A stretch of 64,000 nt of DNA from positions 5,152,001-5,216,000 of the forward strand of contig OZ245046.1 in assembly GCA_965224245.1 (NCBI GenBank), in the 5' to 3' direction. Made by a program: the position numbers and the translations under genes. Positions within the stretch are counted from its first letter, which is position 1, and each line of letters begins with the position of its first letter. Positions 23,183 through 63,966 of this stretch are shown piece after piece. The notes beneath the pieces were generated by a model. The model saw only the letters and a list, made by a program, of their open reading frames with translations. It had not been told where the DNA came from and made no database searches. The stretch comes from Candidatus Eiseniibacteriota bacterium (GTDB taxonomy: Bacteria > Eisenbacteria > RBG-16-71-46 > CAZAMP01).

Positions 23183-24196
23183 ATGAAGCCACGTTCGAAG
23201 AGATCTCACGCGGCGACGCTGGCGGCGTTGGTCGGGCTGGTGGCCGGCTGCGGGTCGCTCACGGGGCGCCACGACGTCGACGACGAGCTGGCACGTGCCG
23301 GGCCCACGACGATCCGGATCCTGGCCACCGCCCGCACCGATGGCGAGACCGATCCCTGTCCGTGACGGTCGGCGCCCGGACAGGGCGGGCTGGCCCGGCG
23401 GGCCACGCTTCTCGACTCGTTGCGGGCAGAGGATCCGGATCTGCTCGTGGTCGACGCCGGCGACTTCTGCGAGCACGATGGGCCGCTCGCGGTGGAGAAG
23501 AGCGCCTTCATCCTCAGCATGATGCAGGAGATGGGCTACGACGCCGTGGCACTGGGTCCGAGGGAGCTGGCGATCGCCGGCGACCTGTCGCACGCGATCG
23601 AGGATACCCGTGGCATCGTTCTCTCGAACGCGACCGACGCCATCGATCGATCACTCTCGCCTGAGCGCCACGTCGTCAAGCAAGTCGGAGGCACGAGAGT
23701 GGGCGTCTTTGCGCTCGTGCAGCCCGAGGCCGCCGGCGGCTCGGCCGCCGACGCCCTCCCCGAGCTCGTCGCCGCCGCCGAGCGCACGTTGCGAGATCTC
23801 CGCGCGGAGCGAGCCGGCTTCACGGTGCTGCTCTGTCAGCTCGATGCCGTGGTGACGGACACGCTTCTCAGACGGATCACAGGCGTGGACCTGGTCGTGA
23901 TGGGAGACACGCCCGTTGCACGCATTCGGGACCGTATCGAGAGCACCGTGCCCCTGGTCGTGTACCCGGGAGGAAAGGGACGCTCAGTGACGATCGTCGA
24001 CGTGAGCGTCGACGCGTCCGGTACCGTCGTCGACGGCCAGGCCCGGATGGTCCTCCTGAACGCGCACATTCCGCTGGATCCGCGAGTCCACGCGCGGGTC
24101 TCGGTCATGAACGCCCGCATCCGGGAGGAGCGGATGCGGATCTTCCGGGAGAGCCGGGGGCTGGGCGACGGTAGAGAGGTGTCGGACGATCCGTGA
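23183..24196 (+). CDS. Probable selenoprotein: UshA/5'-nucleotidase-like lipoprotein with a C-P-U motif (in-frame TGA 23363-23365)
   Basis: ATG 23183 after GAGGA, lipobox VAGC. Reading through TGA gives ...[43 protein letters not shown]..., continuous with ORF 23420..24196 in the same frame (337 aa). Confidence 0.8.
23367..23395 (+). other. Candidate bacterial SECIS hairpin
   Basis: GGTCGG-CGCCC-[GGACA]-GGGCG-gg-CTGGCC begins 1 nt after the TGA. The apical loop starts with G. Confidence 0.5.
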
Positions 24197-57432: not shown

Positions 57433-57643
57433 CGTGGTTCTCCCGAAAACCCCGATCTTATCACAGGTGAACCTCGAAAACGGCGACCGGTCTGGATCAT
57501 AAGTTGCACAAAGGCAATATGTTACAACCGAGAGGGAGGATCCAGACCTTCGTTGGACGAGACAGCGCTGCGCAATCCGTCGCCGTCTTGCACATCTCGA
57601 ATCAGGAATCCGATCCAGTCGATTCGATGCAGGAGGGCCACAG

Positions 57644-60600
57644 ATGAATCTCAGAATCGGACGCCCAGTCCTCGTCGTGCTTGCCGCAATCACTTCGGTC
57701 GCGGCGATGACCTCGGCTTCGGCTCCGCTCACCGGCGGTGGGGATCGAGCCGCATGCTGCAACCAGTCGCACGATGTCGGACTCGACTTTCGCCGGGACA
57801 GCCCGGGAGCCGTCCCCGAGGCGGTCTCCGGATTCCAGCTTCCCATGGACAACCATCACTACGGTCTTTGCTACAAGCTCTGCGAGGCCGTGGACAGCTG
57901 TCCGGGCACGACGTTTCACCCCGGCGTCGATTTCAACGGGCCGGGTGACGGCGATGCGGATTGCGGTCTCGACGTGCGATCCGTCGCGACCGGACTCGTC
58001 CGCTGGGTCGACACCACGACCTGGGGCAGCATCGTCATCGAGCATCTGTATCAGGGACAGACGTGGTACTCGCAGTACGGCCACCTCGAGATCGCCGACG
58101 TCGTGGTGGGTCAGGCGGTTGCCCGCGGCGACAAGATCGGCGAGGTCGGCAAGGTCGGCGCCACGTCGTGCCATCTCCACTGGGAGATCCGCGAGTCCGA
58201 CCATCCAGCCCCAACCTATGGTCCTTTCTGGGACTGCAACGGCTTTCAGAGCCAGACGACGATCGAGGACTGGTACGAGGATCCGGAGGCATTCGTCGCC
58301 GGGCATGGCCCGTACGGAGAGAGCATCGTGGTGAGCGATCCCCTCGCGGTTTCGCCCACTCGGACCGATCCCATGACGATCTTCGCGCTCCCCGACGAGT
58401 ATGCCGGTGGCTTTCCCGAGGGAGGCGAGCGGAACCTCCTCGTTGGCTTTCGGCTCCGAAACGACGGCCCGGCGGACGTCCTTCTCGACAACTACGGCGT
58501 CGAGGTGTTGAAGGGCGGAGTCCATCAGTTCTTTCTCAGGCGCGATGCGTCCGTGTGGCTCCCGTCCGGCGGTGAGACGCCTGTCTTCGACATGAGAGGG
58601 TGGATCACCGACGACCGCCTGGACGGTCTCTCCGCTACCGAATTCGGCGCGATCGTGCAGTACCAGAAGGGAGGCGAGTGGTTCGACGCTGGTGGCGATG
58701 ACGCGACCGCAACGTTCACCGTGTTCCCGCGGCCGCCCTTGGCGGACCGCATGCTCGTCAAGCGTCCGCGAGCCGAGGGCGAGACCGATCCCGAGACCGC
58801 TCGCATCCATCATCATCAGCATGGATTCAAGTGGTGGATAACCAGCTCGACCACCGCCGACAACCTGTTTCCGGGCTGGAGCCAGACGTTCTACGTCTAC
58901 CCGTCAGGTGAAGTCACCGCGCTCGCGGTCCCTCGACACCCCGACCACGACGGCACCACACCGGTCGTCGCCGGGCGGAATCTCCTGGTGATCCGAGAAG
59001 GCTCTCCGACCGTGTACATCCTCGAGCCCGAGCCGAGCGGTGGACCGTTGCGACTACGGCCGTTCGCCGACGAGGCGGCCTTCTGGGCCTATGGGTACGA
59101 TTCCACGGGCCCCGATCACGACCTCGTCACGCAACCCATCCTCGTGGAGCACGGCTGGTCGTGGCTGGAGGCGGCCTACCCCGTCGGGTCCACGATCGAA
59201 CCACCTGCGGAGGACCCGATCCTCTCGGTAACCCCCGACCACCAAGACGTCGACTGGCCATCGGGCAACGGGTTCTTCGACGTCTGGAATCAGGGCGGCG
59301 GCGAGATGACGTGGACCTCCGAGGTGATCGTCGGCGCGGAGTGGCTCCACATCATCGGTGGAAGCACGGGAGTCGACGGCGGGACCATCAGCTTCCTTGC
59401 CGACGTCAACCCGGTCACCGCACCGCGATCGGGGACGATCCGCGTAACCGCGCCCGGCGCCGCCGGCAGCCCGGCCGACGTGGTCGTCAATCAAGCCGCT
59501 GGCCCCGGGACGAGCGTGCTCTACGTCTGTCCTGACGGCACTGCCGAGTACGCGACCATCCAGGACGCGATCGACGCCGCGATCCCCGGCGACGTCGTCC
59601 TGCTCTGCGACGGCGTGTACAGCGGTCCCGGCAACCGGACCGTCCAGTTTCGCGGCAAGGACATCACCGTGCGATCCGAGAGCGGTGATCCGTCCACCTG
59701 CGTCATCGACGTCGGAGGCGCCACCGGATCGGACACGGGTTTCTACTTCGGCGAGTTCGAGTCCGACGCAGCCGCTCTCGCGTACGTGACGATCACCAAT
59801 GGCGGCTGGGCAACCGCGGGGGCGGTCTGGGTGGCGTACTCCTCTCCGGTCATCGAAGGCTGCGTGTTCGAGGGGAACTTCGCGTCGGAGCGAGGCGGCG
59901 CGGTCAACATCGCCGGCGACAGTGAGTGCAGGATCGAGGGCTGCGTGTTTCGCGACAACGAGGCGGTGGGCTGGGGCGGTGCGATCTACCTCTCCGGAAG
60001 TTCCGCCACGATCGTCGGGAACGTGTTCGAGGACAACTCCGCCGACTTCGGTGGTGCCATTCGTGTGTCCGCATCGGCCGACGGGTCGGTCATCGCCGGC
60101 AACGTCTTCCGTCGGAATCGCGGCAAGGGGGCTGCCCTCTGGGTCGGTGCCAACGAGGTGTTGATCGAGGACAACGTGTTCGATCGGAATGGACCGGTCG
60201 CCGGGGGAAGTGACAAGGGCTCGGTGTTCGTCGGCATGGCGTCGCCGACGCTCTCCCGGAACACGTTCGTGAACAGCCGGGGCACCGCGGTCTGGTGCTC
60301 GTGGGAGGCGGATGCGGTCGTCGAGGCCAACATCATCACCGGGTCGGCCGCATGGGGCATGGTCTGCGAGCCCGATGGTGTTCACCTCCCGGAGCCGACC
60401 ATCCACTGCAACGCGTTCTGGGAGAACGCGAGCGGAGACTTCTGCGGCATCGACCTGGGTGGAAACTTCCACCTCGACCCTCAGATCTGCGTGGGAGACA
60501 CGACGTCGTACGGACTGGCCGACACGTCCCCGTGCCGGCCCGGCCAGCACCCGGACGGCATGGCATGTGGTCGCATCGGTGCGAGCGACTCCGTCTGCGT

Positions 60601-60904
60601 ACTGCTCGACGTCCACTCTCCGCCAGAACGGCCGCAAGCGGTCGTGTCCGTATGGCCGAATCCCGTCCGGGGTCAGGTGCGGATCGCGGGCCCCATTCTG
60701 GACGGTACACCTGCCCGATCGTCCGTCTACGACCCCACCGGTCGTCGCGTGTGCTCGCTGGACGTCACCGAGTCTCCAGACCGGGCCAGCGCAATCTGGG
60801 ATGGGTGCGATGATTCGGGACGCCCGGTGCCGCCCGGGGTCTACTTCCTGCGCTGGGGATCGGCTGAGAGAGGGACCTCGGCGCGGATCGTCTTGATCGA
60901 GTGA
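57644..60904 (+). CDS. Secreted multidomain protein: M23 peptidase + BACON-like + parallel beta-helix + FlgD-like C-terminus
   Basis: HPGVD (HxxxD), YGHL and HLHWE (HxH). 'W.....GAEWL...' BACON-like segment. YATIQDAIDAA...GVYSGPGN and repeated F..N.A..GGA. C-terminal PNP...YDPTGRRV...WDG. Confidence 0.85.
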   Translation: MNLRIGRPVLVVLAAITSVAAMTSASAPLTGGGDRAACCNQSHDVGLDFRRDSPGAVPEAVSGFQLPMDNHHYGLCYKLCEAVDSCPGTTFHPGVDFNGPGDGDADCGLDVRSVATGLVRWVDTTTWGSIVIEHLYQGQTWYSQYGHLEIADVVVGQAVARGDKIGEVGKVGATSCHLHWEIRESDHPAPTYGPFWDCNGFQSQTTIEDWYEDPEAFVAGHGPYGESIVVSDPLAVSPTRTDPMTIFALPDEYAGGFPEGGERNLLVGFRLRNDGPADVLLDNYGVEVLKGGVHQFFLRRDASVWLPSGGETPVFDMRGWITDDRLDGLSATEFGAIVQYQKGGEWFDAGGDDATATFTVFPRPPLADRMLVKRPRAEGETDPETARIHHHQHGFKWWITSSTTADNLFPGWSQTFYVYPSGEVTALAVPRHPDHDGTTPVVAGRNLLVIREGSPTVYILEPEPSGGPLRLRPFADEAAFWAYGYDSTGPDHDLVTQPILVEHGWSWLEAAYPVGSTIEPPAEDPILSVTPDHQDVDWPSGNGFFDVWNQGGGEMTWTSEVIVGAEWLHIIGGSTGVDGGTISFLADVNPVTAPRSGTIRVTAPGAAGSPADVVVNQAAGPGTSVLYVCPDGTAEYATIQDAIDAAIPGDVVLLCDGVYSGPGNRTVQFRGKDITVRSESGDPSTCVIDVGGATGSDTGFYFGEFESDAAALAYVTITNGGWATAGAVWVAYSSPVIEGCVFEGNFASERGGAVNIAGDSECRIEGCVFRDNEAVGWGGAIYLSGSSATIVGNVFEDNSADFGGAIRVSASADGSVIAGNVFRRNRGKGAALWVGANEVLIEDNVFDRNGPVAGGSDKGSVFVGMASPTLSRNTFVNSRGTAVWCSWEADAVVEANIITGSAAWGMVCEPDGVHLPEPTIHCNAFWENASGDFCGIDLGGNFHLDPQICVGDTTSYGLADTSPCRPGQHPDGMACGRIGASDSVCVLLDVHSPPERPQAVVSVWPNPVRGQVRIAGPILDGTPARSSVYDPTGRRVCSLDVTESPDRASAIWDGCDDSGRPVPPGVYFLRWGSAERGTSARIVLIE

Positions 60905-61865: not shown

Positions 61866-61904
61866 GACCCGCCCACACATGACACCCTATCCCGGAGGGG
61901 ACCC

Positions 61905-63966
61905 ATGAAGAAGATGCTCGTGGCCGCGACGATGCTCGCGACATGGATGGCGTCGACGTCCGCGCTCGCGGAGCCGCGCATGGTGCTCATGGAGAAGCTC
62001 ACGAACACCGCTTGACCGACCTGTCCAGGAGCCAGCCGTGCGCTGGAGGAGATTCTTTCCAAGCATCCGGATACGGTCACGTCCCATTGCCTACCACACC
62101 TGGTGGCCCAGCTCGGCAGACCCGTACTATCAGTACAACGTCCCCGAGAACAATGCGCGCATCAACTACTACGGCGCCGTCTTCACCCCGCACGTCTACA
62201 TCGACGGTCTGATCGACGGCGGATCCGGAGGCGATTGGGAGTCCGTGGTCCTCGACCGGGCGGCCGTCGAGAGCCCGCTCCGGATCGAGCTGTCCGGTGA
62301 CCCCGGTGCCAGCACCATCACCGCGGTAATCACGAACACGAGCGCCGGACTGGTGTCCGGGCAGCTCCGGTTCGTGCTGATGGAGAACGGGCTGTTCCAC
62401 TCGGGCAACCCGCACGACCGGGTCATGCGCGACTTCTTCGCCCCGTCGAGCACCACGGGTGAGTCGATCCTGCTCGCGCCGGGAGAGGAGATCACGCGGG
62501 TCGAGACCTTCTCGGTGGACCCGATCTTCGTCGAGGACGAGCTCCAGTGCGTCGTCTACGTTCAGAACGACGGCACCAAGGAGATCCACCAGGCGGCCAC
62601 GATCTACTTCCAGCTCGACGAGCCCGAGCTGGCGGCGTCCACGATCTCCACCGACGATTCGGCCGGCGGCGACGGCAACGGGCGACTGGACCCGGGCGAG
62701 ACCGCCGACGTGGCCGTCGATCTCTTCAACCTGAACCCGGTCGACGCCAGCGCGGTGACGGGCGTGCTCTCCTCCACCGATCCGGCGCTCACGATCGGCG
62801 ATGCGGCGGGAAGCTGGCCGGACATCCCCGGGGGCACCTCGGCCGACAACGCGGCCGATCCGTTCGGCGTGTCGGTCGACGGCGAGACGCCGTGGGGCTA
62901 CGAGATCCCGGTCACGCTGACCGTGAACGCAAACGACGGCTACGTGAAGGAGATCGACCTCGACCTGCCGGTGGGCTCCCCGACCCACCCGATGGGTCCG
63001 GACGCGGGTCAGTACTACACGTACGAGGACCTGGACCCCTATGACCCGTCACCGGTGTTCGACTGGATCGAGATCGATCCGACCCTGGGCGGCCCGGGCA
63101 CGCTGTTCACGCTGGGCGACGACCAGACCCGCACGACGACGATCCCGTTCGCATTCCAGCTCTACGGCGTCAGCTCCACGACGCTGTCGATCTCGTCGAA
63201 CGGCTTTCTCGCGGTGGGCGCGACGTCGAACCGCGACAACAGTCCCGGCGAGATCCCCGGTCCCGAGGGTCCGCCGAGCATGATCGCCGGCTACTGGATG
63301 GACCTGAACCCGGTCGCCACGGGCGGCGGCAAGGTCTATACGTATGACGACGCGGCCAACGATCGCTACATCGTCGAGTTCTCCGGCGTCGAGCACTACG
63401 ACGGCGCGGGACTCGGACCGGCCGAGACGTTCCAGTTCATCCTGTACGATCCGTCGGTGTACCCCACGCCGACCGGTGACGGCCAGATCGTCATCCAGTA
63501 TCTCGTGGTCAGCGACCCGTCGCGCTGCGCGGTGGGCATCGAGGACCAGACCGAGACGATCGGCACGCAGTACCTGTCGGTCGGTCACCTGAACGCCGCC
63601 GCCCACGGCCTGGCCGCAGGGCGGGCGATCAAGTTCACGACGATCCCGCCGGACGGCTTCGTCTCGGTGGATCCGATCCTGCCGCCACCGAGCGCCGCGA
63701 TGCTGGCCGCGCGCCCCAATCCGTTCCGATCGGGGGCGACGATCCGCTACTCGCTCCCGGTGGCCGGTCACGCCACCGTGCGCGTGTACACGCTCGGCGG
63801 GGCACTGGTCCGGACCCTCCTCGACGGGGAAGTCGGCGCCGGCTGGGGTCAGCTGTCCTGGGATGGCACCGACCGCCGCGGCGTCGCATTGCCCGCCGGC
63901 ATCTATCTGTACGAGATCGAAGGAGCAGGCTACGAGGCGTCGGGACGCCTCGTGCGGCTCCGCTGA
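61905..63966 (+). CDS. Probable secreted selenoprotein: Omp28/thioredoxin-like domain with U-x-x-C (TGA 62013-62015), further extracellular domains and a FlgD-Ig C-terminus; +1 frameshift near 62080
   Basis: ATG after GGAGG and a signal peptide (MKKMLVAATMLATWMASTSALA). Then EPRMVLMEKLTNTA-U-PTCPGASRALEEILSKHPDTVT, continuing in the +1 frame PIAYHTWWP...DPYY...RINYYG..FTPHVYIDG. Confidence 0.8.
62032..62046 (+). other. Candidate bacterial SECIS hairpin
   Basis: CCAGC-[CGTGC]-GCTGG. The loop begins 21 nt after the TGA and has G then U at positions 2-3. A short lower stem TCC/GGA is possible. Confidence 0.55.

Follow-up and report, generated by a model that had tools for sequence, protein, structure and literature searches.

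An Omp28-related selenoprotein gene family with type IX secretion-type tails in Candidatus Eisenbacteria, and one copy that is broken as sequenced

Omp28-related proteins with a UxxC motif, where U stands for selenocysteine, are a known kind of bacterial selenoprotein. They were described as GOS_C in the Global Ocean Sampling (GOS) data, with 74 selenocysteine-containing sequences and 312 Cys homologs, a thioredoxin-like fold, the UxxC motif and elements resembling the selenocysteine insertion sequence (SECIS) (Zhang & Gladyshev, 2008; PMC2398784), and Table 1 of a 2026 review lists this "hypothetical protein GOS_C" as NF045500, "Omp28-related selenoprotein", with UxxC (PMC13188914). Here we analyzed a gene at positions 61905 to 63966 (+) of a 64,000-nucleotide stretch of a Candidatus Eiseniibacteriota genome (contig OZ245046.1 of GCA_965224245.1, positions 5,152,001 to 5,216,000; hereafter the window), in which a TGA at 62013-62015 stands where the first Cys of a thioredoxin-type CxxC is expected. 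Our results indicate that a selenoprotein gene family is real and systematically mis-annotated, and that the copy in the window is broken as sequenced. We give the whole explanation, a gene of this family of which the present copy has most likely been inactivated recently, a probability of about 0.6.

As far as the above sources describe GOS_C/NF045500, the window family shares with it the thioredoxin-like fold, the conserved UxxC, a hairpin after the UGA, the existence of Cys homologs and homology to Omp28, and it differs from it in carrying additional domains, namely Ig-like, NIDO-like and type IX secretion system (T9SS) tail domains. Profile positions ~30-267 of the NF045500 model aligned with proteins related to the window protein, and the scores were 16.2 for the window open reading frame (ORF), 68.5 for the database homolog P0009, and 58.6, 58.7 and 44.9 for the orthologs L111, L023 and L113, respectively, against a cut-off of 200; no gene in the window's genome exceeded that cut-off. 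Since these scores lie far below the cut-off and are no better than those of the Cys-type NF033782 Omp28 lipoprotein model, the window family is, by profile comparison, a separate and distant branch of the Omp28 superfamily outside NF045500, with a longer architecture, the comparison being one with the model. A first-pass annotation of this DNA had described both location and architecture as unusual for a selenoprotein. This was overstated, because Omp28-related UxxC selenoproteins have been catalogued since 2008; what is new among them is the multi-domain, T9SS-tailed architecture.

By analogy, the best functional precedent appears to be HBP35 of Porphyromonas gingivalis, a surface protein with thioredoxin activity whose C-terminal domain is the T9SS signal (PMC4674972). 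HBP35 (PDB 5Y1A) was matched by a profile of our N-terminal region weakly and in the Omp28-type part only (E = 4.4e-4, query 173-241). It differs in that it carries Cys instead of selenocysteine, is linked to heme use, and appears to have no Ig or NIDO-like middle region. The same profile matched Omp28 of P. gingivalis (PDB 2R2C; PF11551) at E = 0.0028, and the PF11551 model begins past the CxxC/UxxC part, at residue ~88. In the thioredoxin MJ0307 (1FO5, E = 3.4e-6) and in Atu2684/DUF1223 (2AXO, E = 2.9e-6), the CxxC aligned with our U/CxxC column, which would place selenocysteine at the N-terminal, attacking position of a thioredoxin-type motif; both are small Cys proteins without export tails, and the similarity covers ~80-130 residues. 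Exported UxxC selenoproteins are also known among DsbA-like, DsbG-like, thiol:disulfide interchange and TlpA-like proteins (Table 1, PMC13188914). The proteins of this group share with the window family an extracytoplasmic thiol-oxidoreductase fold and selenocysteine at the first CxxC position, but they belong to other thioredoxin subfamilies, and neither an Omp28-type domain nor a T9SS tail is among the features listed for them in that table. Our searches of the literature on Omp28 combined with selenoprotein or selenocysteine found nothing relevant, and those on Eisenbacteria and selenoproteins found no mention of Eisenbacteria among the papers listed.

The selenocysteine codon, its hairpin and the decoding machinery

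Direct reading of the DNA revealed a Shine-Dalgarno-like GGAGGGG (61894..61900, +) 4 nt upstream of an ATG, which opens a putative 22-residue signal peptide, MKKMLVAATMLATWMASTSALA (61905..61970, +), followed by EP. Judged by eye, this N-terminus resembles a signal peptide of the Sec export pathway, with an AxA cleavage site. It leads into RMVLMEKLTNTA and then the TGA (codon 37) and PTCP, giving the redox motif U-P-T-C (62013..62024, +), with TGT 62022-62024 as the codon of the resolving Cys. The Omp28-like motifs PIAYHTWWP and INYYGAVFTPHVYIDG were both located in the +1 frame. Both the ORF finder and the public record P0003 (642 aa) place the start at GTG 62038, which lies inside the hairpin described below and in the wrong frame for the N-terminus. 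The first-pass annotation had already called this start false, and in this it was right; the ATG, ribosome-binding site, signal peptide, TGA, PTCP, Omp28-like motifs and FlgD-type tail that it listed were likewise all found in the sequence.

We then compared the TGA column among relatives. A protein search returned 58 matches, and 36 of the 38 with E <= 2.5e-119 were aligned, the fragments P0030 and P0033 being excluded. All but one of these (35/36) begin downstream of the selenocysteine column, 15 of the 36 exactly at the V/M that matches the GTG inside the hairpin; such 5'-truncated entries are the pattern expected of gene callers that meet an in-frame TGA. The sole full-length homolog among the 36, P0009 (686 aa), is a Cys form that reads EEFSNTSCPYCP. 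When related genes were read as DNA, TGA occupied the column in 25/25 (seven genes in five genomes and 18 genes at 12 metagenome loci, some of the metagenome copies being near-identical). Each of the 25 has a signal peptide upstream and xxC with YH.WWP..DPFY downstream, in a single frame with the TGA; the hydrophobic N-terminus of the orthologs, equivalent to that of the window gene, stands in the same frame as their TGA, and the 36 codons before the TGA are conserved in frame in all 25. One further ortholog, L148, has TGC (Cys) in this column. Thus the position aligned with U is held by TGA in 25 genes and by Cys in P0009 and L148, as anticipated when the TGA was first assigned to the first Cys of a thioredoxin-type CxxC.

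The same alternation was seen more widely. Across 41 related genomes there were 36 matches to the Omp28-like domain; a single in-frame TGA was present in 16 of these, and within the motif pattern we counted 17 distinct U-forms, all with TGA, and 10 Cys forms in the same column. Eight loci outside the motif pattern (L117, L118, L122, L123, L131, L132, L137 and L140) are not in these U/Cys counts, and the contigs G069 and G116, already present as L023 and L022, were counted once. The ortholog group occurs in 6 of the 151 phylum genomes sampled; window excluded, six of its seven matches there have one TGA, one has Cys and none is split. We read TGA 62013, with high confidence, as a predicted selenocysteine codon.

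In a quick tree, P0009, which alone among the protein database entries is a full-length Cys form, nests among forms truncated at the selenocysteine column. This suggests a change from selenocysteine to Cys within the family, on a tree built without P0040 and without a root test. The family also often occurs as tandem paralogs (three genes at L022, two each at L158-L162 and L191), each with its own TGA and an identical hairpin.

Downstream of the TGA lies a minimal SECIS-like hairpin, CCAGC-CGUGC-GCUGG (62032..62046, +). It has 5 bp, its stem begins 16 nt and its loop 21 nt after the UGA, and it agrees with the 5-bp hairpin with a CGU loop start noted in the first pass. Neither the stem CCAGC/GCUGG nor the 16-nt spacing differs among the genes compared (26/26). 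The loop varies, being CGUGC in 12 genes, CGUGU in seven, AGUGU in four, and AGUUU, CUUGC and AGUUC in one each, so that loop position 3 is U in 26/26 and position 2 is G in 25/26. Among six full-length orthologs, only 12 of the 122 invariant columns for four- or six-fold degenerate amino acids keep one codon, whereas the hairpin codons AGC, CGU and CUG are unchanged in 3/3 columns, and CGU is a minor Arg codon in these orthologs (26 of 160 Arg codons). The pattern TGA-N6-TGY-N7-CCAGC-N5-GCTGG has a single occurrence in the genome, at the window gene. The Cys ortholog L148 lacks the hairpin. When the wider domain family was examined, 17/17 U-forms had a positioned hairpin vs 7/10 Cys forms, in the latter weaker and at scattered positions (Mann-Whitney p = 0.001, the relatives not being independent). 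Other U-form subfamilies have their own hairpins in the same place, and in one of them the stem is kept through compensatory changes (GGGUCGG/CCGACCC vs GGGGUGG/CCACCCC). Bacterial SECIS hairpins lie shortly 3' of the UGA, reportedly at a distance of ~16-37 nt (bSECISearch work), and have a G in the apical loop. Together, these data support the conserved hairpin as a candidate SECIS element at a suitable distance.

The genome contains the machinery for decoding UGA as selenocysteine, which the first-pass annotation had proposed to look for: a tRNA-Sec (71.9 bits, cut-off 47), identified by ARAGORN as tRNA-SeC with anticodon TCA, selA (515.8 bits, cut-off 267.9), selB (353.4 bits summed, cut-off 242.25) and selD (378.4 bits, cut-off 125). 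selD has an in-frame TGA of its own.

Other candidate selenoprotein genes were observed in the same genome. selD (L018, G000:C1:4218184-4219107, +) reads VSGAG-U-ASKLGPG and is itself a selenoprotein gene, and its hairpin, GGGCCAGG-GGU-CCUGGCCC, starts 12 nt after the UGA, at a distance similar to that in the window gene. A second Omp28-like UxxC selenoprotein gene (G000:C1:2703913-2704596, -; loci L099/L127) reads SVLIEHFTNYA-TGA-GICGSVDP after a signal peptide. It reaches its stop ~210 codons past the TGA, with no FlgD-type tail before it, and has a 7-bp hairpin, GGGUCGG-UGGAU-CCGACCC, from 9 nt after the UGA, which its orthologs elsewhere keep through the compensatory changes to GGGGUGG/CCACCCC mentioned above. 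Within the window, a further in-frame TGA (23363-23365) follows DGETDPCP, with several hairpins downstream.

Domain content and predicted export

Behind the signal peptide, the gene encodes a predicted thioredoxin-fold and Omp28-type domain (61971..62631, +), supported by matches to Pfam Omp28 and to PDB profiles and broken by a frameshift. In full-length relatives Omp28 scored 57.7, 48.4 and 48.2 bits (cut-off 34.9) over residues ~88-235, accompanied by weak thioredoxin-type matches near the CxxC (DSBA, DUF1223, Thioredoxin_3/4), and the nearest ESM Atlas clusters were Omp28-domain proteins (score 0.93). The thioredoxin/Omp28 fold is thus predicted from sequence profiles and ESM Atlas features. 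When the full-length alignment served as the profile query against PDB, only the tail gave matches, to FlgD and to the PorU C-terminus; the N-terminal matches were obtained with an N-terminal-only profile.

The rear of the protein is modular. The Ig-like domain (62644..62982, +; residues ~203-315 of the 642-aa ORF), which includes DDSAGGDGNGRLDPGE, aligns with repeated modules of P0043, a protein with a weak Peptidase_C25_C match that lies elsewhere than these modules; the domain has no Pfam match of its own in relatives at E <= 0.1. The NIDO-like domain (62995..63645, +; residues ~320-536) aligns with two P0043 repeats at 34% and 32% identity. The second of these repeats overlaps a Pfam NIDO match of 27.9 bits (cut-off 25), so the proposed homology to NIDO runs through P0043 by transitivity only. 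The same rear part is found in P0045 behind a C25 peptidase. Finally, a tail that resembles FlgD-Ig and T9SS type-A sorting domains (63706..63966, +) runs to the TGA stop at 63964-63966; in the 642-aa ORF, FlgD_ig matches residues 576-629 with 33.3 bits (cut-off 27). The sorting-domain model TIGR04183 (cut-off 23) scored 23.7 bits in the orthologs L111 and L023 and 21.7 in L113.

A T9SS search for PorU and SprA found both in the genome, at 469.6 (cut-off 420) and 540.1 summed (cut-off 200), respectively. The first-pass annotation had proposed a surface-exported product of ~686 aa. Its signal peptide, the T9SS-type tail and the PorU and SprA genes speak for such a product, but the DNA as assembled cannot encode 686 aa. 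In the genome at large, P0009 gave 150 scored matches, and all but four of these fall on FlgD-Ig/T9SS-type tails at the C-terminus of large proteins, which points to a very large T9SS-type secretome.

From this layout we propose that the family, found in Candidatus Eisenbacteria relatives and in metagenomes, encodes an exported protein of ~686 residues. It would begin with a signal peptide for the Sec pathway, followed by a head of thioredoxin-fold/Omp28 type, then an Ig-like and a NIDO-like domain, and would end in a sorting domain of FlgD-Ig/T9SS type. Within this head, selenocysteine would take the place of the attacking Cys of CxxC, being encoded by UGA 62013 and decoded via the hairpin at 62032-62046. 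The protein would be carried across the inner membrane by Sec and through the outer membrane by the T9SS, and could act at the cell surface as a selenol/thiol oxidoreductase, by analogy with the Cys-based T9SS cargo HBP35, with the Ig and NIDO-like modules serving as spacers or binding parts. Selenocysteine insertion, export route and redox activity are predictions here. In the window copy, one extra base (TCCC) breaks the frame, and this copy is most likely a recently inactivated allele.

The extra base and the competing explanations

The frame is broken 23 codons past the selenocysteine codon, at 62082..62085 (+), where the four bases TCCC stand in place of one codon. Frame 0 runs through ACG 62079-62081 and the +1 frame from ATT 62086, after which 626 codons are open; unshifted translation from the ATG comes to an out-of-frame end at 62298-62300. 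The frame downstream of the TGA, continuous in the relatives, is therefore regained in the window copy only by a +1 shift. TCCC is present with 0 differences in Logan-built contigs of three runs, X1 (depth 9), X2 (depth 12.4) and X3 (depth 2), all from one sample, and given this agreement the extra base cannot be put down to a single assembler. It was absent in 26/26 relatives read as DNA (25 U-forms and L148): the three genome orthologs nearest to the window gene align in a single frame that contains one TGA, and 18/18 metagenome genes are continuous. Removal of a base near 62080 had been treated in the first pass as a technicality. The 26 relatives are all read without any such change, and the window copy is broken as sequenced.

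The copy shows no sign of long decay. In the quick tree its end branch measures 0.29, where the sister branch has 0.38 and the median is 0.22, and, when its translation was read against the N-terminal domain alignment (A5, built without the window sequence), all residues invariant across the U-forms proved to be kept. We consider the extra base to be probably a true mutation, a recent inactivating insertion.

A number of results weigh against the explanation we favor. For every member of the family, the presence of selenium is read from the genes, and redox activity and surface location are predicted from relatives only. The hairpin has only 5 bp, and it received no Rfam match at E <= 10. The 48-nt segment folds with a minimum free energy (MFE) of -10.7 kcal/mol (z = +0.75), and 154 of 200 shuffled sequences fold at least equally well. 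The MFE of the whole segment does not separate U-forms (-18.7 kcal/mol) from Cys forms (-17.8 kcal/mol), and RNAalifold found no covariation, as none of the 5 pairs varies and the sequence never changes. The weight of the hairpin as evidence thus comes from its conservation, not from its folding energy. The Omp28 and TIGR04183 matches are slightly below threshold in the window ORF, with 29.2 bits for Omp28 on the truncated ORF (cut-off 34.9, Pfam) and 20.5 bits for TIGR04183 (cut-off 23). As for the extra base, X1-X3 come from one sample that is possibly the assembly's own source, and their platform is unrecorded, so that a systematic read error is possible; X4, a run of a second sample, reaches the TGA and leaves 62043-62282 uncovered. 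Moreover, L112, an ortholog in a long-contig assembly, has a separate frameshift in mid-gene, and such breaks therefore occur in these data. In L112 (G012:C4, a genome of only 4 contigs) the translation becomes unrelated at ~residue 395, after NWVEIDPNLG.

These last points bear on a different account, in which the organism has an intact gene and makes the full 686 aa, and the extra base at 62082-62085 was introduced by an error of sequencing or consensus. Several observations would fit an error: apart from the shift the gene is flawless, with its open +1 frame and family-invariant residues; its end branch shows no extra length; the extra base sits in a short run of C; and L112, from another long-contig assembly, has an isolated frameshift too. 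Nevertheless, three runs of the depths given above show no difference, even if they may be the assembly's own reads; 16-kb contigs at ~10x from a k-mer assembler suggest that the reads are accurate; and, on an informal check, other long frames in the window (1792, 1190, 1133 and 1047 codons) are unbroken, so indels are infrequent. We regard an intact gene as less likely than a broken one, though as the main rival explanation. The same DNA could in principle yield the full-length protein as it is, by programmed +1 ribosomal frameshifting at UCC-C soon after selenocysteine decoding; both flanking parts are intact and conserved, and the needed shift is exactly +1 in a C run. Yet no shift is needed in the 25 U-form relatives or the Cys form, frame 0 presents no stop or evident hungry codon at the site and stays open to 62298, and we saw on direct reading no Shine-Dalgarno-like stimulator of the prfB type. 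Expression of the window copy by such a shift directly after selenocysteine decoding is a bolder and much less likely proposal than the surface display of the family considered below, and we consider it highly improbable.

The remaining accounts deny the selenocysteine itself. Public gene callers treat the whole family as if the TGA were an ordinary stop and the 642-aa ORF from GTG 62038 the true gene. Such a product would have a secretion tail and yet no signal peptide; the conserved frame before the TGA in the 25 relatives would have no place in it, its first 16 residues are out of frame relative to homologs, with tblastn matches beginning at residue 17, and the Cys-form homologs are continuous through the site. 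We give this account even less credence than frameshifting. A variant genetic code that reads TGA as a standard amino acid has nothing in its favor except the open frame. The window gene and several relatives terminate in TGA, the TGA column pairs with Cys only, and a dedicated tRNA-Sec, SelA, SelB and SelD are present, which leaves this explanation with next to no plausibility. Collectively, we prefer the reading of a selenoprotein family gene whose window copy has been inactivated recently; being frameshifted, this copy should be counted as a working selenoprotein only after a check of the reads.

Neighboring genes and implications

The neighbor genes of the orthologs examined are not conserved and give no functional clue. 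They include an M23/beta-helix protein, a sigma-54 activator, LysM/SLT, CAP and MoeA genes and, once, an AhpC/TSA redoxin. The last (L025:5653-6216, +) is an AhpC/TSA-Redoxin gene ~770 nt downstream of the ortholog in the only genome of the same family as the window's genome, and among the orthologs examined it was seen beside this one alone. In the window, the upstream neighbor (57503-60900, +) encodes 1132 aa with Peptidase_M23, BACON and right-handed beta-helix/NosD domains and a weak FlgD_ig tail, and is probably another T9SS-type cargo.

In summary, the mis-annotation extends across the family: both signal peptide and redox motif are missing from 35 of the 36 aligned database entries, with the result that automated annotation labels a predicted secreted selenoenzyme as a cytoplasmic "hypothetical protein". 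The 15-nt hairpin with its fixed spacing offers a compact and testable candidate SECIS element for this lineage. More tentatively, and at somewhat less than even odds in our judgment, these proteins may be surface-displayed selenoenzymes, in which the T9SS would put a selenocysteine active site outside the cell on an Ig-/NIDO-like stalk to act on extracellular substrates; disulfides, peroxides, and chalcogen or metal species in the water of soil or sediment are conceivable examples. If this is true, a little-known phylum would use selenium in its chemistry outside the cell.

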